A DNA stretch of 62,787 nt, filler included. It is 4 parts of 4 records of this genome, joined end to end, with 100 filler letters (N's around TTAATTAATTAA, not from the genome) between each part and the next. Parts side by side here need not be neighbours in the genome. Positions count along the whole stretch, not along the records: positions 52,383 to 62,787 come from SRR22947725_1392; 3 more parts are not named here. One strand, 5' to 3'. Under the pieces are notes generated by a model. It saw only the letters and a program-made list of their open reading frames with translations, did no database searches and was not told the origin of the DNA. A program made the translations under genes and the position numbers. The number at the start of each line of letters is the position of its first letter. Positions within the stretch are counted from its first letter, which is position 1. Below, piece by piece: positions 4,679 through 58,760 of the stretch.

Positions 4679-4686
4679 AAAAATTA

Positions 4687-5733
4687 TTATATAGTTTTAA
4701 ATTTATCAAAATATGAATTGTAAGATAGATTTTTAATATAATTAGATCTTTTAGTTTCCTGAATAGTTGTTAGTTGAAAATTACTATTCAATCTTCTTAG
4801 CATAGTAATCATAGAATTTTCATCATTAGGTTCACAAGTTAAAATCCAACTCATCTTTGAGATATCCTCTACACATTTAGTGCTTAAAATATTTTTGTTT
4901 AATAAAATCATCTCGTTAAGAACATTTGGAAATCCCTCATTTCTAGACGGCACTATACATCCTTTTGCATTTTTGATTAATGGAAAAGGATTAGTAATTT
5001 CATTTTTAATAAAGATTTTGTTAGACAGCCTATTATTAGTTATCAGTTTTTTTAAATTATTATATTCAATACCACTTCCAAATATGTAAAGATTAGGCAA
5101 TGAATCGATTTTGGAATAAGCATTAATCAAAATATCAAATCCTTTATCGTAGATCAATCTACCTAAACAAATAAAATATTCTTTTTCAATAATATCTGTT
5201 TGTAGTTTAGACATTGATTTAATCTTATCTTTTTCAATTGGATTAGCTAGAACAATTTTTAAGGGATTTAATAGTTGCAAATTTTTATCAAAATAACTTT
5301 TCATTTCATTTGTTTGAAAAATTACTGTATCAGAATATTTATAGCCTATTTTATGAAAAAAACTATATTTCAAAAGCTGAAAACCTTTAAATCTTTTATA
5401 ATAATTAGTTGATTCTCTTATTAATATTTTATTCACATCAAAAATTTTACATTTTCTGAGAATTGATAATATAGAATTCAAATAAATATTTGAAGTAAAA
5501 GAAATGTTATATTTTTTATTAAAAAGAAAAAATGGCAAAAAGAAATATCCCAAGTAATTAATATCACTAATTATTTTGTATTTATAGCCTTTCCAAAAGT
5601 TGTTATTGCCATAAGAAGAAATAAATACTAAATCGTAATTAATCGAATTTAATTTACAATAATCAATATACATTTTCAATATTCTTTCTGATCCTCCAGT
5701 TTTAAAATTTGGCACAACAATTAAATTCATCAT
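4687..5733 (-). CDS. Glycosyltransferase family 4
   Basis: GGSER; GRLIYDKGFD; SRNEGFPNVLNE. Confidence 0.88.
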   Translation of the reverse strand: MMNLIVVPNFKTGGSERILKMYIDYCKLNSINYDLVFISSYGNNNFWKGYKYKIISDINYLGYFFLPFFLFNKKYNISFTSNIYLNSILSILRKCKIFDVNKILIRESTNYYKRFKGFQLLKYSFFHKIGYKYSDTVIFQTNEMKSYFDKNLQLLNPLKIVLANPIEKDKIKSMSKLQTDIIEKEYFICLGRLIYDKGFDILINAYSKIDSLPNLYIFGSGIEYNNLKKLITNNRLSNKIFIKNEITNPFPLIKNAKGCIVPSRNEGFPNVLNEMILLNKNILSTKCVEDISKMSWILTCEPNDENSMITMLRRLNSNFQLTTIQETKRSNYIKNLSYNSYFDKFKTI

Positions 5734-6860
5734 ACTATTTCATTAAATAAATCCAAATAATTTTTTTGGAAATAATTTTTTGAAAAATAATCGCTAGTTA
5801 TTTTAGAAATTTGTGGGTAATCAAAATTCATATTTAACATTCTCAATATTTTATTTTTTAAAATATCCTCATTTTCAAACAATGGATCATAGGATTCGCC
5901 AAAAGCATAATCTTTGTAAAAGTTTTTTAAATAATTAATTGTTTTATGAAAGCCAATAATAGGTGTGCCAACTAATAATGACTCTATGTAAACTATACCA
6001 AAACCTTCATCTGAACTTGGAACAACAAAAAGACGACTTCTAGAAATAATTCTAAACTTTGATTCTTCATCAACATCACCATGAAAAATAATTCTACTAT
6101 TTTTTTTAGAAATTTCTATTAGATTTTTCAACTCAGGACCATCTCCAACAATATTTAACTTAAATTTTTTAAACTCATTGCAATTAAAAATATTAATCAA
6201 AACATCACAATTCTTTCTTTTCCACAATTTACTAACAAAGGTGATTTCATTTTTTTTTCTTGAAAGATCTGTTTTTTTTAAATCAAAGACTTCAACGGAG
6301 GGGTGAATAGTTTTGAAATTTTTATGAACTGATTTATCAACAATACCATCCATTAGAACGATAACTTTATCAAAATATTGATGATTTTGAATTTTACCGT
6401 GATAAAAATTTGAAACAAATTTTATATTAGAAAATTTTTTCTTTAAACTTGGAACCAATAAATTAAAAGTACTATTGGTAAATGCTGAGTAAATTACAGA
6501 ATAATTATTTGTATTTAAAATACTTGTAATCCTGATATACTCCAAACTCAACTGAGCTGAATTAAGAGGTCTAAAAAAGGAATACTTAATTAGCGGATTA
6601 AAAAAAAATAAAATAAAATATAAAATAAACTGAAAATCATTAACTCCGGCAAATAATTTAGAATTTATTATTTTAAAACTTAAATTCTCACCATCATAAT
6701 TTGCAATGCTATCACTGAGATTATTCTTCAAATCGAATAAATATAGATCATATTTTTCTTGAAGAGATCTTAAAATGTCTTTACATAATATAATTTTACC
6801 TCCACTGTTCTTATTAGTTATGATTTCATAGGTAGGAAATAGACACAAAATCTTTTTCAT
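5730..6860 (-). CDS. Glycosyltransferase family 4
   Basis: SGG near the N-terminus; VGDGPE; EGFGIVYIES. Confidence 0.85.
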   Translation of the reverse strand: MKKILCLFPTYEIITNKNSGGKIILCKDILRSLQEKYDLYLFDLKNNLSDSIANYDGENLSFKIINSKLFAGVNDFQFILYFILFFFNPLIKYSFFRPLNSAQLSLEYIRITSILNTNNYSVIYSAFTNSTFNLLVPSLKKKFSNIKFVSNFYHGKIQNHQYFDKVIVLMDGIVDKSVHKNFKTIHPSVEVFDLKKTDLSRKKNEITFVSKLWKRKNCDVLINIFNCNEFKKFKLNIVGDGPELKNLIEISKKNSRIIFHGDVDEESKFRIISRSRLFVVPSSDEGFGIVYIESLLVGTPIIGFHKTINYLKNFYKDYAFGESYDPLFENEDILKNKILRMLNMNFDYPQISKITSDYFSKNYFQKNYLDLFNEIV

Positions 6861-6863
6861 AAT

Positions 6864-8105
6864 TTATAATTTATAATTTATAATATAAAATAAAACTCCT
6901 AAACCAAAAATAGCTCTAAAAAGAAAAACAAAACCCAAGAATAAAACAATTATTTCACTAAAGAAAATTAAGACAACTAACATTGTTATTATGTCAGGAA
7001 GCAATAAAAGAAATATAAAAGGGCGAATATTACTTGTAGACATAATTTTAACAGAGTAGGGTACTGAAGATGTAACTATAATTGATTCTAAAGTTTTTAA
7101 AAGGAAGAAAACAATTAAAACACTACTTAGTTCGAAAATATAAACATTGGTAAATAAATAGTAAGCAATAACAAAAATAACGATATATGATAAAATTGTA
7201 CCAATAAAAAATAGTTTTCTAGTTTTAAATATTGATATATTTTCATCGTTACTAGCATTAACAAAACTAGCCGAAACACTAGAAAAAAGAGATGAAAGGC
7301 CGTAGAAAATTTTATTAAGAATTATGAAAACAAAAATTAAGTTATTATTTAAAATGAGTGGCGAAATTAGAGCAAAAATATTAGTTTTAAAATAGGAAAT
7401 AGGAAGTTTGATTAAATCAAAAATTGTATATTTTTTTAGAATATTTTTGAATAATTTATAAAAAGAGAAAAAGTCAATTTTTTTAAAATTTTCTAAAGTA
7501 AAATGGCTGTGCTGTGTATTTATAAAATAAATTAGTGATAATAAAAAAGGTGTGTATAATATAATTATTAAAGATTGATCAAAATTATCAGTACCTAAAA
7601 AAATAAATATTGTTATTATAAAAAATTTAGAAAGAAAAAAAATTATTGAAATTTTTAAACCATTTATAAATTTCTTGGATGAAATAAGAATGTTATTAAA
7701 AAAGGTGAAAAAAGAGTCAAATACTGAGGATAAAAGTATTAAGAATATTAAACTAAATTCAAAATTAGTCTCATCAAAATATTCTGAATAAAATAAATCT
7801 TTATAGAAGAAAAAACTTAATAAAGATATTAATATGACAGAGCAAAAAGCTTTGTAAGAAAATACAGAAAAGAACCAATTTAATTTGCCTCTTAAATCGT
7901 AGTTATAAAAAAATCTAAGTGATGATGCATCAAATAAACTACCAATTGACTGAGCAAAAGCCGAAAAAGATAATATTATTGAAAAAGAACCCATAAAAAT
8001 CTCTCCATATAAAATTGACATCAAATAAAGATTGAAAAATCTAAAAAAAAACTCGATAGATTTATTCAAATAGACATTTTGATAGGAATTATTTAATTTG
8101 ATCAT
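6864..8105 (-). CDS. wzx: Probable Wzx flippase
   Basis: 413 aa, hydrophobic throughout, LYGEIFMGSFS early motif typical of MOP exporters, located in a polysaccharide cluster. Confidence 0.7.
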   Translation of the reverse strand: MIKLNNSYQNVYLNKSIEFFFRFFNLYLMSILYGEIFMGSFSIILSFSAFAQSIGSLFDASSLRFFYNYDLRGKLNWFFSVFSYKAFCSVILISLLSFFFYKDLFYSEYFDETNFEFSLIFLILLSSVFDSFFTFFNNILISSKKFINGLKISIIFFLSKFFIITIFIFLGTDNFDQSLIIILYTPFLLSLIYFINTQHSHFTLENFKKIDFFSFYKLFKNILKKYTIFDLIKLPISYFKTNIFALISPLILNNNLIFVFIILNKIFYGLSSLFSSVSASFVNASNDENISIFKTRKLFFIGTILSYIVIFVIAYYLFTNVYIFELSSVLIVFFLLKTLESIIVTSSVPYSVKIMSTSNIRPFIFLLLLPDIITMLVVLIFFSEIIVLFLGFVFLFRAIFGLGVLFYIINYKL

Positions 8106-9283
8106 TTCCTATAAGAAAAAATAAATATTAAAAGTAAGGCTCTTGCCGAATAATTTTGAATTAAAAAAGGTTCTTTAATTTCAAAAACAAGTAATATTAA
8201 AATTAATAGATAGTTTATAAACTTATGATTAAAATGTGTTTTAATTGCATTACAAATAAAATAGGAATAAAATAAAACTGATCCCAGTCCTATAGCATTA
8301 GTCATTCTCCAATAGCCACTGTCTGATTGAATAAGAAAATCAGATGGACCACTATAATATCCGTTACCTAAGATAAAATTATTTACATTAAAGCTGGTGG
8401 TTTCAGAGAGTTCTGTAACAGATGAATTAGAAAATTCAAAAACATTAAACTCAATAAAAGTTTCAAAAGTACTAAAAACCCAAAAAAACCAAGAATAATC
8501 TAATTGTTGAGCTAATATATTTTGAAACAATAAAATAAATACGAATAAAAATAAAGAGAAGGAAACTAAAAAATTGATTGGCTTATTTTTAAATTGAATA
8601 AATAAAAAAATTGAATATAAAATAAAGCCTACATAGATAGAAGATCTTGATATAAAAAAACAAGACAAAAATATTACTGAAATTTTTAATAAATTATAAT
8701 AATTTATTTTTTTTAATCCATTATTAATTAATAAAACCATTGCGATTACGTTAAATAAACCTAAACTAGCACCACCTCCAAGTGCTATCCCTCTTAATCT
8801 AAAACTACTGTTAGCATAAGAAATATTATTATCCGAATATTGAACTAAAATATTTTCTAAAAAATCCCTTAACGGATCATAAAAGAATTCTAATAAAATA
8901 ATAGTGCTATTAATAAACGATGCTAAAATAATTATCTCTACAACAAGTTTTAAACTTAAATACTTTTTAAATACAGAGGAAATTAGAATAAACGATAAAA
9001 AAAATAAGAATATTTTTAAGAAATTGAAAATATTGTGATTATTTAAATACGCAAAAATTATAAAAATAAAGACAAAAGGAATGGTAAGTAAAATACTTTT
9101 TGAGTGATTTAAAAAAATTTTTATATCTGATTTAGTAACCAATAAAATGGAAATGAAAAAAATAAAGTAAGACAGTTTTAAACTTGTAAAACCAAAACTA
9201 AAGGTTGTATTTAATAAATAAATTATTATAATACATTTGATAAAGAAGGGATTATATAATAATTGATTAAAATACTTTTTCAT
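8102..9283 (-). CDS. wzy: Probable Wzy O-antigen/capsule polymerase
   Basis: Multi-TM protein with RLRG, SRSS, ILGNG and SDSGY loop motifs typical of Wzy/WaaL proteins. Confidence 0.7.
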   Translation of the reverse strand: MKKYFNQLLYNPFFIKCIIIIYLLNTTFSFGFTSLKLSYFIFFISILLVTKSDIKIFLNHSKSILLTIPFVFIFIIFAYLNNHNIFNFLKIFLFFLSFILISSVFKKYLSLKLVVEIIILASFINSTIILLEFFYDPLRDFLENILVQYSDNNISYANSSFRLRGIALGGGASLGLFNVIAMVLLINNGLKKINYYNLLKISVIFLSCFFISRSSIYVGFILYSIFLFIQFKNKPINFLVSFSLFLFVFILLFQNILAQQLDYSWFFWVFSTFETFIEFNVFEFSNSSVTELSETTSFNVNNFILGNGYYSGPSDFLIQSDSGYWRMTNAIGLGSVLFYSYFICNAIKTHFNHKFINYLLILILLVFEIKEPFLIQNYSARALLLIFIFSYRK

Positions 9284-10353: not shown

Positions 10354-11732
10354 TCTAAAATTTTATTTAAACTGTTATTATTTCCAAAATATTTATTTTT
10401 AAATAATGTGTGATTAAATTTACCATTCAAAATAAGACTAATTTTGTCTTCTAATTCATCAGGTGATAAAATAAAGTTATTAGGAAAATCTTTAGAAATT
10501 TCGAAATAATCTCCCCATTTTCTGGTATTTAGAACTGCAAAAGGGATTTCAAAAATTGTTGACTCAATGATAGCTGTACTGTGAGATCCTATAACAATAT
10601 CAATATTTTTTAATGATTCACTGTATAAACCAGTTTTAGTTTTAATTTTGGTTAGTTCAGGATATTTATCAATTAGTTTATTATAAAAAAAGCAATTTTG
10701 ATCTCTAAGCTTAAAAATTATATTAAAGTTTGAATTGGAAACAATTTTTTTTATATAAGGATAAATTGAATCAACATCTATTAGCGGTTCGGTTATAAAG
10801 AGAATGTTTTTCTTTTTATTTTTATTTTTAACTAATTTATTTATTAAGTGATTATTTCTTAAATAACCCCAAGATTCTAAACGTGAGTAGTTATTAGACT
10901 GATCATTAAAATATTTTTTCCAAAATTCAGACCAGACAATAAAAATATCAGGTGAAAATTTTTTATTGCTATAAGAGATATGCTCATAGGACATATAAGT
11001 ATTAAAACTTAAACCATGCATAAATCCTAAAGTCTCTATATTTAAATTTTTTGAGGCCAAAAAGGGATAGATTTGACGGTATGAAACCTCCCATGGAATA
11101 AATTTTGTAACTTTTAATTTTTTGAAAATAAACTTTAAAATAAAAAACATGTTTTTTTCTCGAGTATGATTTGAAAAAAAGTTTGACAAAAAATTATTTT
11201 CTTCATTACTAAAATTAGTAATATTTATAGAAATTAAATCTTTTTTGAATAGATGTAATAATGGTTCTAAACAGTCATAATAAATGACTGGTCTTCTCCT
11301 TTGAAATAAGTTAAAAAAAAAAGTTCTGTAATCTACATTTCTTAATCTTATAATTTCAAAATAATTGATCTTACTATTTTCCAATTCTAGAATCAGATTT
11401 CCTAATCTAAAATCAGATTTTGTTTTGATATTATAAAAATCTCCAGACCATATTGCAATTTTTCTTTTTTTTGTAAGCAATAAAAAAAAAGAGAAAATAG
11501 AGTACAGAAAAGCAGTAAAATATATAGGAGAATTAATTATATAAGATTTAAATTTTGACAGACTATAATTATAATATTTAAATGTTCCCGAGACTTTTTT
11601 TAATGAAAAAAATCTATATACATCTGAATATAAGGTCAATAAATAAGGATATTCAATAATTTTATATGAATAAATTTTTTCTTCTTTAAAAATTAAATCA
11701 GTAATTTCTTTGGCGTCTTTTATATAACTCAT
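10335..11732 (-). CDS. Putative GT-B transferase, candidate CMP-ulosonic acid (sialyltransferase-like) transferase
   Basis: GFMHG, IVWSEFW and DIVIGSHSTAIIE motifs resemble CMP/CDP-donor GT-B enzymes; coupled to the KdsB-like gene. Confidence 0.5.
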   Translation of the reverse strand: MSYIKDAKEITDLIFKEEKIYSYKIIEYPYLLTLYSDVYRFFSLKKVSGTFKYYNYSLSKFKSYIINSPIYFTAFLYSIFSFFLLLTKKRKIAIWSGDFYNIKTKSDFRLGNLILELENSKINYFEIIRLRNVDYRTFFFNLFQRRRPVIYYDCLEPLLHLFKKDLISINITNFSNEENNFLSNFFSNHTREKNMFFILKFIFKKLKVTKFIPWEVSYRQIYPFLASKNLNIETLGFMHGLSFNTYMSYEHISYSNKKFSPDIFIVWSEFWKKYFNDQSNNYSRLESWGYLRNNHLINKLVKNKNKKKNILFITEPLIDVDSIYPYIKKIVSNSNFNIIFKLRDQNCFFYNKLIDKYPELTKIKTKTGLYSESLKNIDIVIGSHSTAIIESTIFEIPFAVLNTRKWGDYFEISKDFPNNFILSPDELEDKISLILNGKFNHTLFKNKYFGNNNSLNKILDWIKKK

Positions 11733-12475
11733 AAATCCTTATAGTCATTAAATAATTCATCAGACTCTAGAAGATTTTCAATAATTGGCACATCTGACAT
11801 TTCGTCTAAACTTACACAATTTTGATCTACAATTTCTGTTATTATTTTATATCCATTTTCAACGAATCTTAAATGTTCATGTTGGACTATAAGCTCCAAT
11901 GGAGTTGGATCTAAACTATCGTAAATTTCAAGAGCCTCTGGTCTAAAAGTCATTAAATGATATGCTTTTAAAAATTCATTAGCTTTACCATCTTTACTCA
12001 TTGGAATATCTGAACGAGAAATATATAAAATATGTTTATTAACATCGGTTACAATTTTAAAATCAGAGTAAGAATTCTTTATGGAATACTTAGTTAACAA
12101 CATAGATGCGATAGCATGCTTGTCATTTAAAAGTGTGTTAATAGAAATGTTAATGTCAATTGGCTGTAAAAGGGCTTCATCGCCATTTATCAAAACATAT
12201 AAATCGTAATCATTATATTTCTTTTTAACCTCCACCATTCTTTCGGTTGGATTTAAATGATTAACTGATGTCATCATAACTTTGGCACCTTTGGCCCTTG
12301 CGATTTCATAAATCTCTCTAGAATCGGTAGCTATAATAATATCCGTAATAGTAGTATTTTTTATAGCTCTATAATAAACATGCAGCAAACATTCAACTCC
12401 TTTTAATTTAAAGAGAGGTTTTCTTTTTATTCTTGATGACTCTAATCTTGCCGGTATAATTCCTAAAACTTTCAT
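11729..12475 (-). CDS. CMP-Kdo synthetase-like cytidylyltransferase (KdsB/KpsU family)
   Basis: IIPARLESSRIKRKPL; IATD; MTSVNH..PTER; NGDE; YISRSDIP; LE...EHLRFVENG. Confidence 0.88.
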   Translation of the reverse strand: MKVLGIIPARLESSRIKRKPLFKLKGVECLLHVYYRAIKNTTITDIIIATDSREIYEIARAKGAKVMMTSVNHLNPTERMVEVKKKYNDYDLYVLINGDEALLQPIDINISINTLLNDKHAIASMLLTKYSIKNSYSDFKIVTDVNKHILYISRSDIPMSKDGKANEFLKAYHLMTFRPEALEIYDSLDPTPLELIVQHEHLRFVENGYKIITEIVDQNCVSLDEMSDVPIIENLLESDELFNDYKDL

Positions 12476-13185
12476 AAATCAATGTTTTCTAAAGAATCTA
12501 TTAAAATTTTTCCATCCGTTGAAAAGGCTATATAATTATATTTTTCGGATTTAGCTTTTTGAAGATCTTTTTGACTCGTATTTACAACATGGGTTCCTTT
12601 TTGTAAATCATTTTTTTTAATTATTTTATTAAATCTTTCTACTACTTTTAAATATTCTAAACTATCAAATTCTCCAGGTTTGCCAATACTACTAGAAATA
12701 TCGTATGGACCTAACATATAAAAATCAATAGTATTTTTATATTTATTTGAATAATTTTCAAGAACAGACAAACCTTCTAAACTCTCAATTTGTATTCCAA
12801 TAATTGGTTTCATTTTATTTTTCAAAAAAGACTCCATATCCTTTCCGAAATTATTTTTTGGACAATATCCAACTCCTCTGGAACCAATTGGCCTAAAAAA
12901 GGAACCACTTATCAAAGAATCTATTTCATCTTTTGATCTCACATCAGATAAAATTATGCCATCATAGCCAAGGTCCAATAACCAACTGTAAAATTTACTG
13001 TCTCTACAAGAAACTCTTACAAATAATTTCTTTTTTGTTTTATTAGCTGAGGGAAATATTTCTAAATTATTATGACTTCCATGTTCTAAATCAATCACGT
13101 GAAAGTCAAAATTATATTTCTGTAAAATCTCAAAAACTTTGATAGAACCAAGTTGAAGCCATGACCCAATTTTTTGCTTAATCAT
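12472..13185 (-). CDS. HpcH/HpaI family class II pyruvate aldolase
   Basis: IDLEHG; PIGSRGVG; QIES; GPYDISSSIG. Confidence 0.9.
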   Translation of the reverse strand: MIKQKIGSWLQLGSIKVFEILQKYNFDFHVIDLEHGSHNNLEIFPSANKTKKKLFVRVSCRDSKFYSWLLDLGYDGIILSDVRSKDEIDSLISGSFFRPIGSRGVGYCPKNNFGKDMESFLKNKMKPIIGIQIESLEGLSVLENYSNKYKNTIDFYMLGPYDISSSIGKPGEFDSLEYLKVVERFNKIIKKNDLQKGTHVVNTSQKDLQKAKSEKYNYIAFSTDGKILIDSLENIDL

Positions 13186-13799
13186 AATAATTCACTAAAA
13201 TTTTTAATTATCCTAATATCATCATTTTTAAGTACTTTTCCTACACCAATAAAATTTACATTTACATCTTTTGAAGCTATATAATCCTTTGGAGAGTCTC
13301 CATAAAAAACCACATTCGATTCATTAGTTTTATATTTGAAAATTATTTCCCTTAAAGCACTTTGTTTTGACATATCCGACCCATAAACCTTTTCAAAATA
13401 ATGATTTAAATTACGGCTATTAATAATTGATACTAACTCCTTATCGGGTGTTGCGGAGGAAACAAACAATAAGCAATTTGGATCTTTATATAGTTTTGTC
13501 AAGTAATTTTCAACTCCTATAATGAATTCAGAAGCGAGTACTTTATCATAAACATTAGTTGAAAAAGATTTAAGTTTTTCTGAAATATTAAAATTACTAT
13601 CCTTGGATTTTAATATATTTTTTTCAATATGAGAGATTTTTACCTTTCTTGGAACGCCAGGGTTTAACTCTAAGTAAGATTTTATTTTAAAAAAATCATC
13701 ATCATACTTTGAGTCTTTATACAAATTGAAAAATTCATTTTCTTTAATTGATGCAGAATTCAAAATAACTCCGTCAAAATCAAAAACATGATAAATCAT
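13182..13799 (-). CDS. HAD family phosphatase
   Basis: FDFDGVILNS; VSSAT; K; YGDSPKD. Confidence 0.9.
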   Translation of the reverse strand: MIYHVFDFDGVILNSASIKENEFFNLYKDSKYDDDFFKIKSYLELNPGVPRKVKISHIEKNILKSKDSNFNISEKLKSFSTNVYDKVLASEFIIGVENYLTKLYKDPNCLLFVSSATPDKELVSIINSRNLNHYFEKVYGSDMSKQSALREIIFKYKTNESNVVFYGDSPKDYIASKDVNVNFIGVGKVLKNDDIRIIKNFSELL

Positions 13800-14509
13800 T
13801 TTTTTCTAAAGACTAAGTTAAAATGGGATTGCATAAAGTATGATGGCAAAAATCCAAATTTAGAAATCAAAAATCCAAATATGCCAAACCTTTTGAAGGG
13901 AGACCATCTTTTGGAGATTAGTTCAAACCCATTACTTTTAAAAATCTCAACAAGAATATTAGGATTTTGATGTAAGTGCCATTCAATGGATGGAGCAAAG
14001 GGACTTTTTAAACCTAAATCACCAAAAAAATTAGATTTAGCACAATCTGAGACTAAAATCAGGCCATTTTTATTTAGTAAAATATTCATCTTATGTACAA
14101 GTTCATTATAAATAATTTTTGAATTATGATCTTTGTCAAGTTTGATGTAAACATCTTCGTCCAAGTGATTAATAGTGTCGTGCATTGTTATTATATCGAA
14201 TTTTGATTCTGCTTCAAAATCCTGAAATGTTTTATTTATATAACTAACTTTTAAATCGTTAATAGTGTTGTCAATAAATGCACCACTACTACCAGCTAAA
14301 AAGGGTTCTAAATTTGAGCAACTTTTGGCTCCTTTGTACATTGAAAAGTAAGAACACAAACCTTTTCCTCCTCCAACATCAAGAACTTTTTTGCCTACAA
14401 AATTAAAATCTTTGAACAGCCAGTTCAAGTAATTATAGATCGTTTTGAATTTGTGATGATTCAAATCAAATGGCTTATATATTTCTTTAAATTTATTTTT
14501 CATATTCAA
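13796..14509 (-). CDS. Class I SAM-dependent methyltransferase
   Basis: VLDVGGGKG; FDIITMHDTINH; LLNKNG. Confidence 0.85.
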   Translation of the reverse strand: MNMKNKFKEIYKPFDLNHHKFKTIYNYLNWLFKDFNFVGKKVLDVGGGKGLCSYFSMYKGAKSCSNLEPFLAGSSGAFIDNTINDLKVSYINKTFQDFEAESKFDIITMHDTINHLDEDVYIKLDKDHNSKIIYNELVHKMNILLNKNGLILVSDCAKSNFFGDLGLKSPFAPSIEWHLHQNPNILVEIFKSNGFELISKRWSPFKRFGIFGFLISKFGFLPSYFMQSHFNLVFRKK

Positions 14510-25654: not shown

Positions 25655-25754
25655 NNNNNNNNNNNNNNNNNNNNNNNNNNNNNNNNNNNNNNNNNNNNTT
25701 AATTAATTAANNNNNNNNNNNNNNNNNNNNNNNNNNNNNNNNNNNNNNNNNNNN
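25655..25754. other. Artificial contig spacer (Ns plus TTAATTAATTAA)
   Basis: 100 nt with a six-frame stop linker; identical at three places. Confidence 0.98.
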
Positions 25755-33874: not shown

Positions 33875-33974
33875 NNNNNNNNNNNNNNNNNNNNNNNNNN
33901 NNNNNNNNNNNNNNNNNNTTAATTAATTAANNNNNNNNNNNNNNNNNNNNNNNNNNNNNNNNNNNNNNNNNNNN
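33875..33974. other. Artificial contig spacer
   Basis: Ns plus TTAATTAATTAA. Confidence 0.98.
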
Positions 33975-51605: not shown

Positions 51606-52282
51606 TTGGAAAAAGAAAAGAAAAACAACGATTTAACCTCCATTTCTGAACTAGGAGAATTTAGGTTGATTGAAGAAATCACTAAAACATTTGAAATTAT
51701 CAATGATTCAACTGATTTAGGAATTGGAGATGATGCAGCGGTTTTAGATTTTAAAGGAGATAAAGTATTGGTTTCTACTGACATGTTAGTAGAAGGAGTT
51801 CATTTCGATCTAGCCTACACACCTTTAAAACATTTGGGTTACAAATCTGTTATTTCAAATCTTTCTGATATTTATGCTATGAATGGCATTTGTACTCAAA
51901 TAACAGTAAGTATTGCCCTTTCAAATAGATTTACTCTTGAATCAGTTGAAGAACTTTATTTAGGTATTCGCGCAGCTTGTAAAAAATTCAAAATTGATCT
52001 TGTTGGTGGAGACACTACTAGTTCTAATAAGGGTCTTATAATCAGCATTTCAGCTATTGGCCGTTCTGTAAATAAAACAATAACTAAAAGAGCTGGAGCT
52101 AAAGAAAATGATCTTTTGGTTGTTTCGGGAGATTTAGGAAGTGCCTATATGGGTTTACAAATATTAAAACGAGAAAATGAGGTTTTTAAAGTTAATCCTA
52201 AAAATCAACCTGATCTTTCAGCTTATGCTTATCTTTTACAAAGACAATTAAAACCTGAAGCAAGAAAAGATGTTATTGACTT
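51606..52282 (+). CDS. thiL: Thiamine-monophosphate kinase, 3' truncated
   Basis: GEFRLI; GIGDDAAV; STDMLVEGVHF; NLSDIYAM; GGDTT; SGDLG. Confidence 0.94.
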
Positions 52283-52382
52283 NNNNNNNNNNNNNNNNNN
52301 NNNNNNNNNNNNNNNNNNNNNNNNNNTTAATTAATTAANNNNNNNNNNNNNNNNNNNNNNNNNNNNNNNNNNNNNNNNNNNN
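52283..52382. other. Artificial contig spacer
   Basis: Ns plus TTAATTAATTAA. Confidence 0.98.
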
Positions 52383-52967
52383 AGAGTGAACCGCACCAAT
52401 TCTAGCACAAGCAAGCATTGTTACTGCAAGTTCTGGAATCATAGTTAAATAAATTGTAACTCGATCACCTTTTTTAATTCCTAGTTTTCTTAAACCATTT
52501 GCAGCTTTAGAAACTTCATTATGTAATTGTTTATACGAAATTTTTTTAGTATCTTTTGGATCATCACCCACCCAAATAATAGCGGTTTTATCTTTTTTAT
52601 CTTTAAGGTGACGGTCTATACAATTGGCAGAAGCATTCAATGTGCCATCCTCATACCATTTAATTTTAACCTCTTTTTTACTGTATTTTATATTTTTAAT
52701 CTTTTTGTACGGTTTAATCCAAGTAATTCTTTTCCCCTCATTCTTCCAAAAGTCATCATTTTTTTTAATCGAGTCTGAGTATTTTTTTTGATATTTCGCT
52801 TTATTTACTAGAGCACTTTTTACCCACTCAGGTTTAGTTTTTATGATTAATTCTTTTTCTTCGATTTTTTTTAAAACCTTTTTCTTAAAAGGCTTTACTT
52901 TTTTTTTAGCCTTAGTTTTTTTTGAAGTTTTTTTTTTCACTTTTGATAATGATTTTTTTTTAGGCAT
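52383..52967 (-). CDS. acs: Acetyl-CoA synthetase, 5' part, with Lys-rich N-terminal extension
   Basis: FW...[48 protein letters not shown]. Confidence 0.93.
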
Positions 52968-52980
52968 GAATTTTTTTTAT

Positions 52981-53400
52981 TTAAATACTACTCATCTTAT
53001 TTAAAATTTTCCAGCTTTTAGAGTCTATCGGCATAACAGATAATCTGCTTTGTCTAATAAGTGATAAATGGCTAAGAGACTTGGTTTTTTTAACCTCTTC
53101 TAGAGTTACACTTTTCTTTAATTTTTCTTTAAACTTTACTTGAACAGCTACAAATCGTCCATCTTTGTCAGTTTTATCTAAAAAAGCTTCTTTAATAACC
53201 TCAACTATACCAACAATTTCTTTGCCTATATTTGAGTGATAAAAAAAACAAAGGTCTCCTTTTTTCATTGCTCTTAAATTTTTTGCAGCTTGATAATTTC
53301 TTACTCCATCCCAAGGAGCACCTTTAGCGCCAGCTTTTTTTTGCTGATCAATTGACCAAACATCAGGTTCTGATTTTAATAAAAAATAGGATTTTGCCAT
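52981..53400 (-). CDS. EVE domain protein
   Basis: LKSEP; WDGVRNYQA; MKKGDLCFFYHS; RLSVMP. Confidence 0.94.
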   Translation of the reverse strand: MAKSYFLLKSEPDVWSIDQQKKAGAKGAPWDGVRNYQAAKNLRAMKKGDLCFFYHSNIGKEIVGIVEVIKEAFLDKTDKDGRFVAVQVKFKEKLKKSVTLEEVKKTKSLSHLSLIRQSRLSVMPIDSKSWKILNKMSSI

Positions 53401-53421: not shown

Positions 53422-53583
53422 TTATATTGCAATATAAGTAAAGGGTAAAAAAATTTGGAAAAAAACAAAAATAGAAAAAAGTAAAATCAAAATTATAAAG
53501 ATTAAAAAAAAAAAAGTTTTAACTAAACCATATTTTTTTTTAAAATCTCTTATTAAAAAAAAGTAATTAATTATTTTTTTCAT
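53422..53583 (-). CDS. 53-aa single-TM peptide, DUF5989/SxtK-like
   Basis: MKKIINYFFLIRDFKKKYGLVKTFFFLIFIILILLFSIFVFFQIFLPFTYIAI; ATGA overlap with the carbamoyltransferase stop; PFTYIAI end resembles PFIYTLF; not in the ORF track. Confidence 0.75.
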   Translation of the reverse strand: MKKIINYFFLIRDFKKKYGLVKTFFFLIFIILILLFSIFVFFQIFLPFTYIAI

Positions 53584-55274
53584 ATATCTTTAGTTTGATA
53601 TAAACCATCATCCATTAAAACAATCTTAATATTCATTCTCTTCATGTTTACATAAACATCATACAAGTCAAATATAACTGGATCTTTTGAAATATTAAAA
53701 GAAGTATTAACCAATATATCTGAGCCACTCTTTTTAAGATTTGTAAGAACTTTATGCGTTAATGAATTTTTATCTTTAACAATTTGTGGTCTACAAGTTC
53801 CATCAACATGTATGATTGAATTATATTTATTATAAAGTTCTTCTTTGGCATCACACAATGTTCCCATCCATTCTAAATTTTTTACAATACTTTTATTTAT
53901 TGAAAAATATTTTTCAAAATCTTTTTCAAGTAAAATTGGAGCTAAAGGTTGAAAATGTCCTCTTTTTTTTAAGTTCAAATTTAAATTTATCACAGCCTCT
54001 TTATTTCTAGCATCACAGAAAATAGATGTGTTACCAAGAGACCTTGGCCCAACTTCATTGGGTCCATAATAGGAAGCAATTATTTCACCTTCTATTAATT
54101 TAGTTGCTGTCTCATTTGTAAAATCATTAGTTAAATTAATTTTTGAAAAAAAGTTATCTTTACTTTCTTTTTTGTTAATAAATTTTTTTTTTGGACCAAG
54201 AAAAATACTATTAAAATCAAGTATTTTTTTTTTTGATTTTACTAAAAAGGCAAAATTTGCAGCACCTATAGCAGACCCAGAGTCTCCTGGGGAAGGTGGA
54301 ATAATCATTTCTTCAAAAATATCTTGCTTAGATAGACTATGAATCATTTTACAATTCAAGGCTACACCCCCTGTTAATACAATCTTGCTCTTACCAGATA
54401 AATCCATTGCTTTTTGAATCAAGTTTTTCATTGTATTTTCTAAAATTAATTGAGCTGAGCTTGCTATATCTGCATATTTCTTAAAGTTTACCTCTTCACT
54501 TATGTTTAGGTAAGGGTCTCCAAATACTTGACATAATTTTTTTGAAAAAGATTTGCTTGGGCTTTTATGAAATTCAAAATAATCCATATTGATTGTAAAA
54601 TTATTAATATCAAAAATTTTATTAAATTCTTTTTCATAAATTGGTTTTCCAAACGAGCTTAGAGACATGACTTTAAATTCACCTTCATTAATTTCAAAAC
54701 CAAGATAATCGGTGATTGTAGAGTAAAGTAAGCCAATTGAGTTTGGGTAAAAATTAGTCCAAATCTTTTTAATTTTATAATCATTATCTATTGTATAAAA
54801 AGACATTGTCTCTCCCTCCCCAACACCATCGCAAGTGACATAAACATAATCAGAAACATTTTTAATAACTGACAAGCCGTATAAGCAATGGCTTAGATGA
54901 TGTGATGAATAAATAATCTTGCTTCTTGAAATATTGATTAATTTATTTATGTCTGTATAAAAAAAAATTGATCCTTTGTTAAAATTTTTTAGATGATGAA
55001 TTAAAAAACTTTTATTTTGTAATGGATTTTTTATTGAATAATAAAAAATCTCCCACCATGACTTAAATGGTTTTTCATAAAAGCATATGAATTTAATATT
55101 TTCATTTTTTAAATCAAATTTTTTAATTAAGAACTTTAAACATCTTTGTGGAAAATTTTTATCACCTTTTATTCTGCTAAAGGATTCTTCTTTTAAAAAG
55201 CAATTAGTTCCCTTGTTGTCTGTTAAAAAAACTGACGATTCATGGTAGTAAGCAGATATTCCAATGTAGTACAT
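53580..55274 (-). CDS. NodU/CmcH/TobZ-family O-carbamoyltransferase (divergent)
   Basis: GISAYYHES; HHLSH; DGVGE; SIGLLY; EFKVM; GGVALN; PGDSG; GPRSLGN; HVDGTCRPQ; NTSFN. Confidence 0.9.
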   Translation of the reverse strand: MYYIGISAYYHESSVFLTDNKGTNCFLKEESFSRIKGDKNFPQRCLKFLIKKFDLKNENIKFICFYEKPFKSWWEIFYYSIKNPLQNKSFLIHHLKNFNKGSIFFYTDINKLINISRSKIIYSSHHLSHCLYGLSVIKNVSDYVYVTCDGVGEGETMSFYTIDNDYKIKKIWTNFYPNSIGLLYSTITDYLGFEINEGEFKVMSLSSFGKPIYEKEFNKIFDINNFTINMDYFEFHKSPSKSFSKKLCQVFGDPYLNISEEVNFKKYADIASSAQLILENTMKNLIQKAMDLSGKSKIVLTGGVALNCKMIHSLSKQDIFEEMIIPPSPGDSGSAIGAANFAFLVKSKKKILDFNSIFLGPKKKFINKKESKDNFFSKINLTNDFTNETATKLIEGEIIASYYGPNEVGPRSLGNTSIFCDARNKEAVINLNLNLKKRGHFQPLAPILLEKDFEKYFSINKSIVKNLEWMGTLCDAKEELYNKYNSIIHVDGTCRPQIVKDKNSLTHKVLTNLKKSGSDILVNTSFNISKDPVIFDLYDVYVNMKRMNIKIVLMDDGLYQTKDI

Positions 55275-55275
55275 G

Positions 55276-55992
55276 TTAAGTTATAGAATTAGGTCCTATA
55301 TTTTTCATTACATCTTCATCTGTAATACTTTTTTTTAATTTTAAAAAGTGAGTTATGAGACTTATAAATATTAAGATTGTTATTAATATTGGGTTAAAGA
55401 TAAAAGAAAATTTATTTAAGCTATTTGCATAAATGTGCCTAAAAAAACTTAATGTTTTTTCTTTAGCTAATTTTATTTTATATGAAAAAAAGCTATTATT
55501 ATTTTTTGCAAATTTAAGAGAATATTCAGCATGCCTTTCTTCATCTTTTAAAATATTTTGAATTTCTTTGTATGCCCAAGGTTTATGTTCTTTAAGATGA
55601 TTTGAAAAGGCTATCAATTTTTTTTCTGCGATTTCTTCATTTGCCCCAACAAATATAGCAAAATCATTTAACTTCTTTTTTTCAAAAATAAAGTGATCTA
55701 TATAAATATATCCCTTATTATAAATGTGACTGGGTACAAAACTTAATTCTTTCTTGTTAATTTTATACTCTGAAATTATTTGATTTTTTATATTTGTAAA
55801 AATAAAACAATGTTTATATTCGTCTAAAGAATGTCTTATGAAACCATCAGAAAGCTTTTTATTATTAACAACTTTTGCTGCAAATAACATCTCAACTGCT
55901 GATGAGAATTCTGCTGAAGCAAATTCATTCAAAACAAAGCAACTTCTCTCAGGATCAAATTTTTTAAGATTACTTTTTGGTATTAAAAACAT
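55276..55992 (-). CDS. Ferritin-like diiron protein with C-terminal membrane helix
   Basis: E (SAEFSS), DEYKH, E (ANEEIAE), DEERH four-helix diiron pattern; hydrophobic NPILITILIFISLI; start is 55992 or 56046. Confidence 0.75.
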   Translation of the reverse strand: MFLIPKSNLKKFDPERSCFVLNEFASAEFSSAVEMLFAAKVVNNKKLSDGFIRHSLDEYKHCFIFTNIKNQIISEYKINKKELSFVPSHIYNKGYIYIDHFIFEKKKLNDFAIFVGANEEIAEKKLIAFSNHLKEHKPWAYKEIQNILKDEERHAEYSLKFAKNNNSFFSYKIKLAKEKTLSFFRHIYANSLNKFSFIFNPILITILIFISLITHFLKLKKSITDEDVMKNIGPNSIT

Positions 55993-56929
55993 TTTATTAG
56001 CTATTTTGGTATTTTTTATTTTATTTGTTCCAAAGGCAGATGCCAAGGGTTGTTTATCATTTTTACCCTATGGTTTTAATGAATCTTATGTTCACTTACC
56101 TCAAAGTGCATCTTTTTGTGTAAAGCAGGGAAAAACAATAATCAAATATCAAACAGATAATTATGGTGGAAGATTACTCAGTGATGAAACTGTAAACAAT
56201 AAAATACAAGTCTTTGGCGACAGCCAAGTATTAGGTCTAGATGTAGAAAATATCGAGCAGCATTATTTAAATACTCTATATAAAAAAAATAATTTTGTAA
56301 TATATGCGGCGCCAAACAATGGTCCTTATGAAGTTATAAATTTTTTAAATAAAAATAAAAAAATTTTACAAAAAAAAATAATTGTCACATTTAGTTTTTC
56401 TACTGATCTTTACAGAATTTTAGATTATTGGAACCCTGAGAATTTTGTAGCTTTAAAAGATTATGAGCTAGATGAAATTTTAGAATATCCTTTTAAATAT
56501 AGATTGATAGTTTTTAAGAATTTATTATTAAATAAAAATTTTACTGTAAGTAGATATGATAATGAAAAAATGCAAAATGTATTTTTAAATTCAGATCAAG
56601 ATAAACTTTACAAAAACCTGAGTAAATATTTTAATGAATTAAATAAGATAGCAAATAAGCTTGATATAGAAATAGACTTTATAGTTACACATCCTTATTG
56701 GGTTTATTCAATTGATAAAAAAAATAATAAACTTTTATTGAATAAAGAATTGAATAAAAAAGTAGAAAAATTGATCTGTAACTCTTTTCAAAGAACAAAA
56801 AAAATAAATAAAGTTTTAATATCTCAAATCTCAGAAACTCTTGAGCTAAATGATCTTACAACTGATAAGCGACACTTAAAATCTACAAAAATCAAACTTA
56901 CAAAATACCAAGAAATATGTATTTTTTAG
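55982..56929 (+). CDS. Exported SGNH/GDSL-like hydrolase or transferase
   Basis: Signal-like KNILLAILVFFILFVPKADA; TDNYGGR; VFGDSQVLG (block I); C-terminal DKRH (DxxH); start uncertain (ATG 55838, ATT 55982 or TTG 56006). Confidence 0.6.
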   Translation: MKNILLAILVFFILFVPKADAKGCLSFLPYGFNESYVHLPQSASFCVKQGKTIIKYQTDNYGGRLLSDETVNNKIQVFGDSQVLGLDVENIEQHYLNTLYKKNNFVIYAAPNNGPYEVINFLNKNKKILQKKIIVTFSFSTDLYRILDYWNPENFVALKDYELDEILEYPFKYRLIVFKNLLLNKNFTVSRYDNEKMQNVFLNSDQDKLYKNLSKYFNELNKIANKLDIEIDFIVTHPYWVYSIDKKNNKLLLNKELNKKVEKLICNSFQRTKKINKVLISQISETLELNDLTTDKRHLKSTKIKLTKYQEICIF

Positions 56930-56998
56930 CTATTTAGTCTCAAAAACAAACAATATTTTTTAATAGACTTTTAAAATATTATATTGAAAAATATACTT

Positions 56999-57496
56999 AT
57001 GAAAAATTTTAAAATTTTTATAATTATTTTATTTATTACTTTTTCAAGCTTAACTAATATTGCGTATGCTGAGTCACTAAAATTTGCTGCGTCTACCTAC
57101 GAAGGAGAAGTAAAAAAGGGAAAAGCTCATGGTGTGGGTATTTTTACTTTTTCAGATGGGTCTACTTATGAAGGCAAAGTTTCTAAAAATAGAGTTCATG
57201 GCAATGGAAAGTATACAGATGCTCAAGGAAAAGTTTATGAAGGCAAGTTTAGGTTTGGAACTATTAAAACAAAGATAGATAAAAAAACTAGAAATATAGT
57301 TAAAATAAAAGCTAAAACTGGATTTGAAACTTACGTTGAAATGAAAGGTACAGGCGCCGCATCAACAAAATGGTTTGAAGCTCAACAAAATTCGTCAGGC
57401 ACTTATGAACTGACTGTTAAAGGAAAAACAGCAATGGCTGCTGCAATTGCAAGTGGTGGTTCTGATAGTTCTTCTGGTTCTAGTTCTGGCTGTTAA
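56999..57496 (+). CDS. Exported MORN-repeat protein with Ser/Gly tail and C-terminal Cys
   Basis: Signal peptide ending AYA; YEGEVKKGKAHGVGIFTFSDG, YEGKVSKNRVHGNGKYTDAQG and YEGKF repeats; ends SGGSDSSSGSSSGC. Confidence 0.85.
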   Translation: MKNFKIFIIILFITFSSLTNIAYAESLKFAASTYEGEVKKGKAHGVGIFTFSDGSTYEGKVSKNRVHGNGKYTDAQGKVYEGKFRFGTIKTKIDKKTRNIVKIKAKTGFETYVEMKGTGAASTKWFEAQQNSSGTYELTVKGKTAMAAAIASGGSDSSSGSSSGC

Positions 57497-57642: not shown

Positions 57643-57687
57643 TTATCGAAATATAAGGAGTGTTGGTTTCATTAACCAGTACTGCAT
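57643..57687 (-). pseudogene. Orphan 5' remnant of an EVE-domain gene (MQYWLMK...)
   Basis: ATG overlaps the tsaD stop (TAATG); reads MQYWLMKPTLLIFR*; the first 7 residues match the EVE N-terminal YWLxKSEP motif. Confidence 0.6.
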
Positions 57688-58760
57688 TACAATCTTACTC
57701 CAGCACCCTTTAAAAAAGCAGCATCTGCATCTAGGGGCCACCTAGGTTTTGCAGGACTATCTAATTCACTAAACTGTTTTAACTTAAATTTTTCTAATCC
57801 AACCATTGCAATCATTGCCGCATTATCTCCACATAAATTAATAGGTGGAAATATTGCTTCAAATTCTTCTTCTTTGCAAAGATTAGTTAGAACTTCTCTA
57901 ATTCTCTTGTTTGCAGCAACACCACCTGCAACTACAAATTTATTTTTAATTGTTGTGTTCATTTTTTTAAATTCTTCAAAAGCAATTTTACTTTTCTTAT
58001 ATAGTATTTCTTCAATTGTTTTTTGAAAAGATGCTGCAAGATCATATTTTTCTTGTTCAGTTTTTATTTGTTTTGATATTTTTAAAACAGCAGTCTTTAA
58101 ACCCGCAAATGATAAATTACACCCTCCTTTATGAAAAATCGGCTTTGGTAGCTCATATTTATTGGGATCACCTTTTTTTGCATACACTTCAATTTGTGGC
58201 CCACCTGGAAATTCTATTCCTAATAATTTTGCCGTTTTATCAAAGGCTTCACCTACAGCATCATCAATAGTTGTTCCTAATCTTTTATAATTTCCTAAGC
58301 CTTGCACACTTAAAAACTGAGTATGACCTCCAGAGATTAAAAGTAATAAATAAGGATAATTTAATTCAGAATTTAGTTTTGGGCTTAATGCATGTCCTTC
58401 TAAATGATTAACAGCTATAAAAGGTTTATTTAGCGAGGAGGCCATTGCTTTTCCAAAACTTAAACCAACAGACAGACAGACCATAAGACCAGGTCCTGCT
58501 GTGGCTGCTATTGCATCCAGTTCTTCCATTTTTACTCCACTTTCATCAAATGCTTTTTTTGTTATTAAATCTATTTTTTCCATATGGGATCTTGCGGCAA
58601 GTTCTGGCACAACACCGCCAAACTCTTTATGAACATCCACCTGACTTGAAACAATACTTGATAAAATTGTTGGCATACCTTGCTCATTTTCAGTTATGAT
58701 AGAGGCCGCTGTTTCATCACAGCTTGATTCAATTCCTAAGATTATGGGTTTTTTATTCAT
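57687..58760 (-). CDS. tsaD: tRNA N6-adenosine threonylcarbamoyltransferase
   Basis: LGIESSCDET; GGVVPELAARSH; GPGL; NHLEGH; SGGHT; DDAVGEAFDK; DNAAMIA. Confidence 0.97.
   Translation of the reverse strand: MNKKPIILGIESSCDETAASIITENEQGMPTILSSIVSSQVDVHKEFGGVVPELAARSHMEKIDLITKKAFDESGVKMEELDAIAATAGPGLMVCLSVGLSFGKAMASSLNKPFIAVNHLEGHALSPKLNSELNYPYLLLLISGGHTQFLSVQGLGNYKRLGTTIDDAVGEAFDKTAKLLGIEFPGGPQIEVYAKKGDPNKYELPKPIFHKGGCNLSFAGLKTAVLKISKQIKTEQEKYDLAASFQKTIEEILYKKSKIAFEEFKKMNTTIKNKFVVAGGVAANKRIREVLTNLCKEEEFEAIFPPINLCGDNAAMIAMVGLEKFKLKQFSELDSPAKPRWPLDADAAFLKGAGVRL

Follow-up and report, generated by a model that had tools for sequence, protein, structure and literature searches.

What do the five genes that separate the core genes EVE and tsaD in a SAR11-like genome do, and do they work together? 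In this study, we analyzed this islet in a stretch of DNA of 62,787 nucleotides (nt), filler included, hereafter called the window. The islet encodes a ferritin-like diiron protein (FER), a carbamoyltransferase (CT), a 53-amino-acid (aa) membrane peptide (TM53), a predicted exported SGNH-fold protein, and an exported MORN-repeat protein with a Gly/Ser-rich tail. The five genes probably form one functional unit. The islet may be a relay of the sxtIJKL-like and Dlt-like kind, with the diiron protein standing where SxtJ would be and the tailed protein as the likely acceptor. EVE (52981-53400, minus strand) and tsaD (57687-58760, minus strand) enclose the following features:

55276-55992, minus strand: FER, a 238-aa ferritin-like diiron protein with an ATG start.
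53580-55274, minus strand: CT, a carbamoyltransferase of 564 aa, assigned by Pfam.
53422-53583, minus strand: TM53, an open reading frame (ORF) for a 53-aa single-pass membrane peptide with a basic N-terminus.
53425-53442, minus strand: the C-terminal hexapeptide F-T-Y-I-A-I of TM53, a match to the FXYXXF-type 'acyl shuttle' motif.
56006-56929, plus strand: the predicted SGNH-fold exported protein, 307 aa from a TTG codon at 56006, assigned by motifs and fold.
56984-57496, plus strand: the MORN-repeat exported protein, 170 aa, assigned by Pfam MORN and proposed as the client.
57359-57493, plus strand: the tail module of the MORN protein, consisting of a motif, a linker, and a Gly/Ser-rich tail (57452-57493) that ends in Cys.

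The genes are tightly packed. FER and CT are separated by 1 nt (55275), the CT stop and the TM53 start share a 4-nt ATGA overlap, and 21 nt lie between TM53 and EVE; the gene positions and spacings given in the original prediction were all confirmed. A scan for promoters and terminators found 26 sites where 30.6 were expected, which is not above chance; therefore, the operon structure is read from gene spacing only. Pfam matches across the islet and EVE are limited to CT, the MORN protein, and EVE itself (7.7e-44), and the FER, SGNH-like, and TM53 proteins of the window match no Pfam family. Export signals and membrane topology were read by eye from the sequence. The host is, as judged from its sequence relatives, a Pelagibacter-type SAR11 bacterium: one homologue is sourced to Candidatus Pelagibacter and the syntenic loci come from Pelagibacteraceae single-cell genomes, in agreement with the SAR11-like label it had been given.

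The arrangement recurs far more than expected by chance. A scan of species genomes found FER and CT adjacent in all 21 loci. Thirteen of these are in Pelagibacteraceae species genomes at the same tsaD-to-EVE position, and the remaining loci are in other contexts, including a Flavobacteriaceae metagenome-assembled genome (MAG), a Rhodospirillaceae MAG, and a SAR116 genome, with 30-43% identity. In total, the block was found in at least four genomic contexts, including other neighbourhoods in G222 and G085, and the co-occurrence anticipated across genomes and phyla was thus observed. A TM53-type peptide gene lies directly 3' of CT in the distant loci L014, L015, L019, L021, and L030-L032; the exception is L033, in which the peptide gene is located about 2 kb off on the opposite strand. 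The SGNH gene adjoins in L001-L015, L018, and L021 and was not found in L016, L017, L019, or L020. FER is present in 10 of 401 Pelagibacteraceae species genomes. Since many of these 401 genomes are incomplete, the most fitting description is that of an accessory cassette with a patchy distribution. The cassette proteins of one genome (G172) are 93-99% identical to those of the window, and G172 was used as a proxy genome. At the SAR116 locus (L021, 12591-14766), a CopC/CusF-domain protein is encoded 3' of the cassette, and further ORFs were read by eye as a cytochrome c and a multicopper oxidase fragment.

CT is an intact NodU/CmcH-type carbamoyltransferase that is predicted to be catalytically competent. 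It combines a Kae1-like N-terminal domain with a YrdC-like C-terminal domain and matches Carbam_trans_N (PF02543; 3.2e-42, 145.6 bits against a cut-off of 24) and Carbam_trans_C (PF16861; 1e-37, 129.8 bits against a cut-off of 27). GdmN (2.3e-41), NovN (5.3e-39), and TobZ (1.6e-26) are its nearest solved relatives by sequence. Across 12 sequences, which include enzymes from canonical SxtJ-DUF5989-carbamoyltransferase cassettes, the residues H125, H126, S128, H129, D149, and D331, as well as G409-P410-R411, K436, R438, H489, D491, R495, and N523-N527, are invariant. The conserved motifs align with GdmN, and the residue roles would be those known from work on TobZ and Kae1. With the NodU equivalog model NF041651, CT scores 100.2 bits against a cut-off of 1000 and aligns over residues 261-529 only; CT is therefore a divergent member of the family and no NodU orthologue. 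The HypF model gives a partial match (5.1e-08, 31.5 bits against a cut-off of 466). In one genome (G106, L033), the CT ORF is 932 aa long, with about 360 extra C-terminal residues.

FER is a ferritin-like diiron-carboxylate protein, as judged from its ligand residues and structure model, with a predicted C-terminal membrane anchor, and it is a putative oxidase or oxygenase. Among 31 full-length relatives (21-78% identity), A38, H54, D57, E58, H61, E119, E151, and H154 are invariant and E28 and D150 nearly so. The ligand pattern E...ExxH...E...ExxH is formed by E28, E58-x-x-H61, E119, and E151-x-x-H154, and both E...ExxH sets are present. The AF2 model (pLDDT 88.3) includes a C-terminal hydrophobic helix at residues ~196-216, which would serve as a single membrane anchor. 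Its best VIA-align match is the Dps-like protein 8w1d (Z 16.4, 143 residues aligned, root-mean-square deviation 2.3), and the other matches listed are of the ferritin, Dps, bacterioferritin, aldehyde-deformylating oxygenase, COQ7, and RNR-R2 types. Foldseek against the PDB gave nothing at E<=0.001, the best match (7.7e-03) being to 8w1d, and the FER family profile matched designed diiron proteins (3.7e-05) and a Dps-like protein in the PDB. The window FER has no Rubrerythrin, AurF, COQ7, or DUF455 match in Pfam at E<=1; weak matches occur in its relatives, with Rubrerythrin in 18 of 31 (best 1.3e-07) and AurF in 12 of 31. The ligand set and the fold matches thus support a ferritin-like fold though Pfam gives none.

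The FER family is small: a search of 1.84 billion proteins at E<=0.001 gave 90 representative clusters, and one 90%-identity cluster contains 630 sequences. The length of 238 aa is kept in 119 of the 120 homologues listed (of 364 matches, from marine metagenomes). We also considered FER as an SxtJ homologue, and the hhalign probability of 0.2% indicates no detectable kinship; none of the five islet proteins matches SxtJ (PF19588). In G106, FER is split over two frames (L033, 7311-10862).

The 307-aa protein is, from its motifs and model, an SGNH-fold enzyme, and its export is predicted by eye. All four SGNH blocks (the Ser in GDS, Gly, Asn, and DxxH) are present. In 17 sequences with 28-89% identity, S73 in FGDSQ, G106, N104/N105/N130, and D287-x-x-H290 are invariant, as are four cysteines (C16, C38, C258, and C305); distant members carry FGESQ instead of FGDSQ. 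The AF2 model has a pLDDT of 86.3 and a pTM of 0.86. VIA-align matched it to CgnD (Z 12.9, 231 residues aligned) and a GDSL esterase (Z 12.0), and also lists DltD, PatB, and OatA at Z 8.0-8.6; the matches listed are mostly GDSL/SGNH esterases and acyltransferases. Foldseek against the PDB found nothing at E<=0.001 (best 1.4e-03), and the window protein matched neither the Pfam GDSL family nor any other Pfam family at E<=1. Both the ferritin-like and the SGNH fold had been proposed beforehand, and both stood up to structure prediction.

The start of the SGNH gene is uncertain. The longest ORF is 55838-56929 and the likely start lies near 55982-56006, where an alternative ATT start at 55982 gives a better signal peptide. 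Upstream of the likely start, the frame is open for 56 codons (55838-56005), antisense to the first ~50 codons of FER, and the same extension occurs in L001-L013 (ORFs of 371-376 aa). The extension is probably not translated, because the L014 ORF begins at the signal peptide. In L031 (G059, 3790-4723), the SGNH gene is divided into two overlapping frames, either by a frameshift or by an assembly error; there it is located 3' of the peptide gene on the same strand and is followed by a 126-aa tailed protein ending in Ser. Loci that lack the window SGNH type encode membrane-anchored proteins of 243-335 aa near or next to the peptide gene, with FYG(S/A)S and D-x-H motifs. They have no detectable kinship with the SGNH family (hhalign 6%) and are found at the following positions:

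L030, 2555-4783: neighbour of the 243-335-aa type.
L032, 5101-6108: neighbour of the 243-335-aa type.
L033, 11206-11937: neighbour of the 243-335-aa type.

The C-terminus of TM53 resembles that of peptides in known acyl transfer systems. In the TM53 family (73 clusters), P47-F48-T49-Y50 is invariant in all 19 aligned sequences, and the end of the peptide follows PFTY-x-(A/V)-hydrophobic, with I, F, or L as the last residue; an exact FXYXXF end is present in L014, L015, P0393, P0395, and P0399-P0402. The available part of PMC12148441 describes a C-terminal FXYXXF motif, the invariant Tyr of which ferries an acyl group to the SGNH serine in D-alanylation and peptidoglycan O-acetylation, and which is carried by the DltX microprotein or fused to the MBOAT protein. 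TM53 has the features of a DltX-type peptide, namely, a membrane microprotein with an FXYXXF-like motif at its C-terminus and an invariant Tyr. This tyrosine is predicted to lie at the periplasmic end of the helix, according to the positive-inside rule applied by eye. A complex prediction for the SGNH protein and TM53 scored 0.01; it was run without alignments and counts neither for nor against binding.

TM53 also resembles the DUF5989 (PF19451) peptides, to which SxtK belongs. Of 301 sampled Pseudomonadota genomes, 61 carry DUF5989. All 30 loci inspected (L120-L169 set) encode a DUF5989/SxtK peptide with the ending PF(I/V)YTL(F/Y); a carbamoyltransferase adjoins DUF5989 in 20/20 loci, and SxtJ was detected in 18/20. 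TM53 and DUF5989 each form a single helix, are basic at the N-terminus, and close with the motif, and TM53 fits the description of a peptide of ~50 aa that passes the membrane once, has a PFxYxx-hydrophobic end, and is encoded beside a carbamoyltransferase. Language-model features place TM53 nearest to DUF5989 clusters (score 0.78), which we treat as a lead only. Membership of TM53 in DUF5989 was considered and is not supported, given the lack of a hidden Markov model match and the low hhalign probability reported below. Since the motif and the position are alike and homology was not detected, TM53 looks and sits like SxtK and DltX, and no family membership is claimed.

The original prediction had compared the islet with sxtIJKL, and this comparison proved apt, as carbamoyltransferase/SxtJ/DUF5989 cassettes do exist outside saxitoxin clusters. 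Annotated plasmid records contain three such cassettes, with a carbamoyltransferase, an 'SxtJ family membrane protein', and a 'DUF5989 family protein'; one of the three (Methylosinus) also includes an SGNH/GDSL protein. When Pfam was run on the flanking ORFs of canonical loci, membrane-anchored GDSL/SGNH neighbours were found in 4/4 (of 20). At L152, which served as an internal check on the motif, an MBOAT protein beside the canonical cassette ends in FIYFDF, and two further GDSL proteins accompany this MBOAT protein (10894-14445). The MBOAT and GDSL proteins beside a carbamoyl cassette place acetylation-type and carbamoyl-type machines in one locus. An islet-bearing Pelagibacteraceae genome also has a canonical SxtJ-DUF5989-carbamoyltransferase cassette, located among family-2 glycosyltransferases:

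L025 (G001:C3:23000-37000), 3865-8922: canonical cassette in an islet-bearing genome.

Two genes without a Pfam match flank this cassette: one encodes a multi-pass protein of 523 aa, and the other a protein of 388 aa that has a membrane anchor and a GDS motif.

The tailed proteins are the candidate clients. In the window, the MORN protein matches Pfam MORN (PF02493; 6.9e-11, 41.8 bits against a cut-off of 22.5) in two stretches, has a signal peptide as read by eye, and contains a sole Cys, which is the last residue. In its tail module, a charged linker joins the conserved motif G-x-[YFW]-x-[LIA]-[ST]-x-x-G to the Gly/Ser-rich tail, and the last ~45 residues align among 15 modules taken from proteins with different N-terminal domains. 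The tailed proteins include the MORN type (167-173 aa), proteins of 265-269 aa, proteins of 120, 126, and 129 aa, and a 49-aa lipoprotein-like peptide. A tailed exported protein adjoins the SGNH gene in all 16 genome loci that have this SGNH type and enough flanking sequence, and L013 and L021 each have two. Ser replaces Cys at the tail end in L027, L028, and L031. Metagenomes provided 80 further loci, all close relatives (66-99% identity), which therefore add tail diversity and no new distant contexts. An ORF follows the SGNH gene in 52 of them, the contigs of the other 28 stopping too early; of these 52 ORFs, 41 have a Cys among their three final residues (C, CG, CGG), 8 carry Ser at the end, and the remaining 3 are truncated or aberrant. 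The Cys may precede G or GG or give way to Ser, and the group that matters is therefore more likely a side-chain nucleophile than the carboxylate at the chain end.

A profile of the tail module matched exactly one place per genome, at the cassette, in 5/5 genomes. Among the 401 Pelagibacteraceae genomes, it gave 6 matches at E<=1.4e-9, all in FER-positive genomes with the SGNH type, and none in the 4 FER-positive genomes without the window SGNH type. The module thus tracks SGNH-positive cassettes, and the tailed protein is a component of this SGNH-bearing cassette form. When the same 401 genomes were searched with a DNA pattern for Gly/Ser-Cys-stop tails, the result was too noisy to use (16 genomes versus 9 in the reversed control). 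The pattern recovered true tails only in G001 and G337 and missed tails with TCN serine codons, including that of the window, and the loci of three pattern matches (L034-L036) have no cassette.

We propose that the islet encodes a carbamoyl relay from CT through the TM53 tyrosine and the periplasmic SGNH protein to the Cys or Ser of the client tail. We infer every transfer step and give this pathway a little less than an even chance of being correct. As CT and the globular part of FER have no export signals, the inner face of the membrane is where they are expected to work. There, CT would activate carbamoyl phosphate with ATP at the cytoplasmic face, and the carbamoyl group would pass to the hydroxyl of TM53 Tyr50. 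Ser73 of the SGNH protein would take the group from the tyrosine and pass it on to the terminal thiol or hydroxyl of the client tail, which is that of the MORN protein in the window. The FER step would most likely oxidize or hydroxylate the carrier or the transferred group; FER may also tether CT to the membrane, a job that SxtJ could have in sxtIJK-like cassettes. We take FER to be catalytic and obligatory because it is always directly upstream of CT. With the Dlt/Pat relays and HypF/HypE as precedents, the relay is the simplest model that uses all parts.

The overall interpretation in the original prediction is partly supported by these results. Its suggestion that the SGNH protein relays the group outside the membrane gains from the DltX-like tyrosine motif of TM53, and its suggestion of the MORN protein as a target gains from a tail module that tracks the cassette. 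Its placement of the diiron protein in the SxtJ role agrees with the lack of SxtJ in the cassette and fails as to kinship and gene order, which differs. The exported protein was described as Cys-tailed, and this is correct for the window; a terminal Cys is not strictly required elsewhere.

Several observations weigh against the relay. No MBOAT, AT3, or other multi-pass protein that could serve as a partner for TM53 is encoded in the islet. CT is cytoplasmic while the TM53 tyrosine is predicted to be periplasmic, and the islet has no membrane channel protein. The model assigns FER no defined role. The similarity of TM53 to known shuttle peptides was not found at the family level: the DUF5989 model did not match any of 10 TM53-family members at E<=10 or the cassette in five genomes, the hhalign probability of the TM53 family with three DUF5989 sequences is 5.5%, and the Pfam DltX family is not among the TM53 matches listed. 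A six-residue motif can arise by convergence. The four canonical loci with GDSL/SGNH neighbours were chosen for readable ORFs, the match in L156 is weak (E 0.0014), and tblastn with three SGNH queries found none near the 20 canonical cassettes (0/20). FER-CT-TM53 occurs without the window SGNH type or a tail protein in L016, L017, L019/L030, L032, and L033, suggesting that the function of this core is independent of both. Tail-like ends are also found outside the cassette, as the FER-negative genomes G039, G030, and G015 (L037-L039) encode small lipoproteins in which a motif related to the pre-tail one precedes a short tail of Gly, Ser, and Asp with Tyr at its end (weak matches, E about 6e-5). 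SGNH enzymes are hydrolases more often than transferases. Moreover, SxtL is annotated as a decarbamoylase in the available part of PMC2679770.

Some of these points fit other explanations. In line with the oxidize-then-carbamoylate pair of the original prediction, FER could hydroxylate a small molecule, a lipid, or a surface glycan, and CT could then O-carbamoylate the new hydroxyl, while TM53 anchors or assists CT, the SGNH protein trims or edits the product, and the tailed protein is an accessory, for example in binding or anchoring, and no substrate. A diiron hydroxylase followed by a transferase has a simple two-step logic, the CT relatives GdmN, NovN, and TobZ act on small-molecule hydroxyls, and the FER-CT-TM53 core exists without the SGNH and tail proteins. 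The surroundings of related loci also agree with it: canonical cassettes sit among glycosyltransferase and exopolysaccharide genes, and the cassette in L027 adjoins a 318-aa ORF, the N-terminus of which resembles a family-2 glycosyltransferase by eye. The islet itself encodes no glycosyltransferase, flippase, or transporter, however, and this explanation accounts neither for the restriction of the tail module to the SGNH neighbourhood and its presence on unrelated N-terminal domains nor for the invariant tyrosine motif of TM53. We regard it as possible, with a chance well under one half. Carbamoylation before export is unlikely. In this pathway, CT would modify the tail Cys or Ser in the cytoplasm in a HypF-like manner, FER would act on the same tail, and Sec export would follow; the SGNH protein would remove the group in the periplasm, thereby protecting and deprotecting a reactive thiol, and TM53 would only hold CT at the membrane. 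Ser-type sulfatases mature in the cytoplasm before Sec export, and the lack of export signals in FER and CT and the weak HypF match of CT are consistent with such an order. The HypF-HypE pair (PMC12130793, available part) and the annotation of SxtL-type GDSL proteins as decarbamoylases (PMC2679770, available part) provide precedents. This order of events leaves the invariant tyrosine motif, located where the TM53 helix meets the outside, without a reason; the core is also found in loci that have no tail protein, and a cycle of protection and deprotection would seem costly for a streamlined genome.

The five genes could also be neighbours without a joint function, gathered in a SAR11 variable region that collects small accessory genes. 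The slot between tsaD and the tailed protein is indeed variable, and the MORN-like proteins are 31-46% identical where FER and CT are 62-65% identical. The genes are nevertheless linked across families and contexts, their start and stop codons overlap or lie 1 nt apart, and the tail module nests within cassette-bearing genomes; this explanation was already disfavoured, and we consider it very improbable.

The genomic setting provided further observations. In some genomes, the variable slot between tsaD and the tailed-protein gene contains extra genes of 688 and 925 aa, found at the following positions:

L008, 4107-6173: inserted gene in the tsaD slot.
L012, 3813-6590: inserted gene in the tsaD slot.
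L013, 3550-5616: inserted gene in the tsaD slot.

A search for direct repeats at the islet borders found AT-rich chance matches only, and no mobility genes were seen. Metatranscriptome contigs from two runs join 53373 directly to 57667 and leave out 4293 nt; loose ends are concentrated at 53376 and 57667. The joint is consistent with abundant strains in which EVE is next to tsaD without the islet; with flanks of only 22-24 nt, it is a weak hint. Three studies supplied RNA-library contigs that fall on the cassette at 90-99% likeness. Two contigs cross the CT/FER junction (X1, 55152-55687; X6, 54940-55552), and another covers the FER/SGNH start region. RNA libraries may hold DNA, and the contigs give neither strand nor level; they therefore demonstrate only the presence of the cassette in such libraries. 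The shares of the stretch in sequencing runs (0.05-0.18) are too small for conclusions on habitat or expression level. The window contains six runs of 44 N in three pairs (25655-25754, 33875-33974, and 52283-52382), the last of which clips a thiL-like ORF (51606-52334) and an acs-like ORF (52335-52967), leaving X in the translations.

The analysis defines a cassette-bound protein tail, which is a clear target for mass spectrometry, links an uncharacterized diiron family to carbamoyl transfer, and offers a concrete and testable tyrosine-shuttle role for SxtK/DUF5989 microproteins. The cassette is carried by lineages common in marine metagenomes. SAR11 bacteria are among the most abundant marine bacteria, and little is known about the modification of their envelope proteins. 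In a broader and more doubtful proposal, SxtK/DUF5989 and TM53-family peptides would be carbamoyl-shuttle microproteins that are loaded by a cytoplasmic carbamoyltransferase and unloaded by an extracytoplasmic SGNH protein, and the acceptor in the diiron variant would be the Gly/Ser-rich tail ending in Cys or Ser. If this is true, trans-membrane acylation of the envelope would come in a third form, carbamoylation, in addition to acetylation and D-alanylation, and a role could be assigned to sxtJ/K-type genes, which are present in about one in five of the sampled Pseudomonadota (61/301). It would also mean a new protein signal, with a carbamoylated or further oxidized C-terminus on the SAR11 surface. 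Among open-access papers and preprints, we found none on DUF5989 and none that joins 'acyl shuttle' with carbamoyltransferase, DltX with SxtK, or O-carbamoyltransferase with SGNH and periplasm; for SxtJ together with polysaccharide, only a saxitoxin genomics preprint, available in part, was found. In the available parts of the saxitoxin literature (PMC2679770, PMC2684587), SxtJ and SxtK are given as proteins of unknown function.

Among known systems, the sxtI-sxtJ-sxtK-sxtL-like cassettes have the same carbamoyltransferase Pfam domains as the islet. Both have an SGNH-fold partner, and in both a one-helix microprotein of ~50 aa ending in PFxYxx-hydrophobic is encoded directly beside the transferase. 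The islet differs in that SxtJ is absent and an unrelated diiron protein is located upstream of CT instead, and the gene order is FER-CT-peptide rather than the SxtJ-DUF5989-CT order of several canonical cassettes. The islet peptide fails the DUF5989 model, and CT is only 26-31% identical to the canonical cassette enzymes. The SGNH protein of the islet has a signal-peptide-like N-terminus (by eye) and no Pfam match, and the islet has a dedicated tailed protein. With the MBOAT-(DltX)-SGNH acylation systems (DltB/DltX/DltD and PatA/PatB), the islet has in common the FXYXXF motif with an invariant Tyr at the predicted extracytoplasmic helix end and an extracytoplasmic SGNH protein (PMC12148441, available part). 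It has no MBOAT protein, no carrier protein, and no Pfam DltX match, and its proposed acceptor is a protein tail and not a polymer. Since the donor in the islet is a cytoplasmic carbamoyltransferase, the transferred group would be carbamoyl, and not acetyl or D-alanyl.

HypF carbamoylates the C-terminal Cys of HypE, as described in the available part of PMC12130793. HypF and CT belong to the same enzyme superfamily (Kae1-like plus YrdC-like), and the acceptor Cys of HypE is likewise at the protein end. The domain order of CT is that of NodU/CmcH and its match to HypF is only partial, the proposed clients are exported Gly/Ser-tailed proteins and not HypE with its PRIC end, and no hydrogenase genes are present. 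FER has a four-helix bundle and the E...ExxH...E...ExxH pattern in common with ferritin-like diiron oxidases and oxygenases (rubrerythrin, AurF, COQ7, aldehyde-deformylating oxygenase, RNR R2, and the Dps-like PA4880). Compared with these enzymes, it reaches no Pfam family and belongs to a small family, and it is set apart by its C-terminal membrane helix, the extra invariant residues H54 and D57, and its constant coupling to CT.

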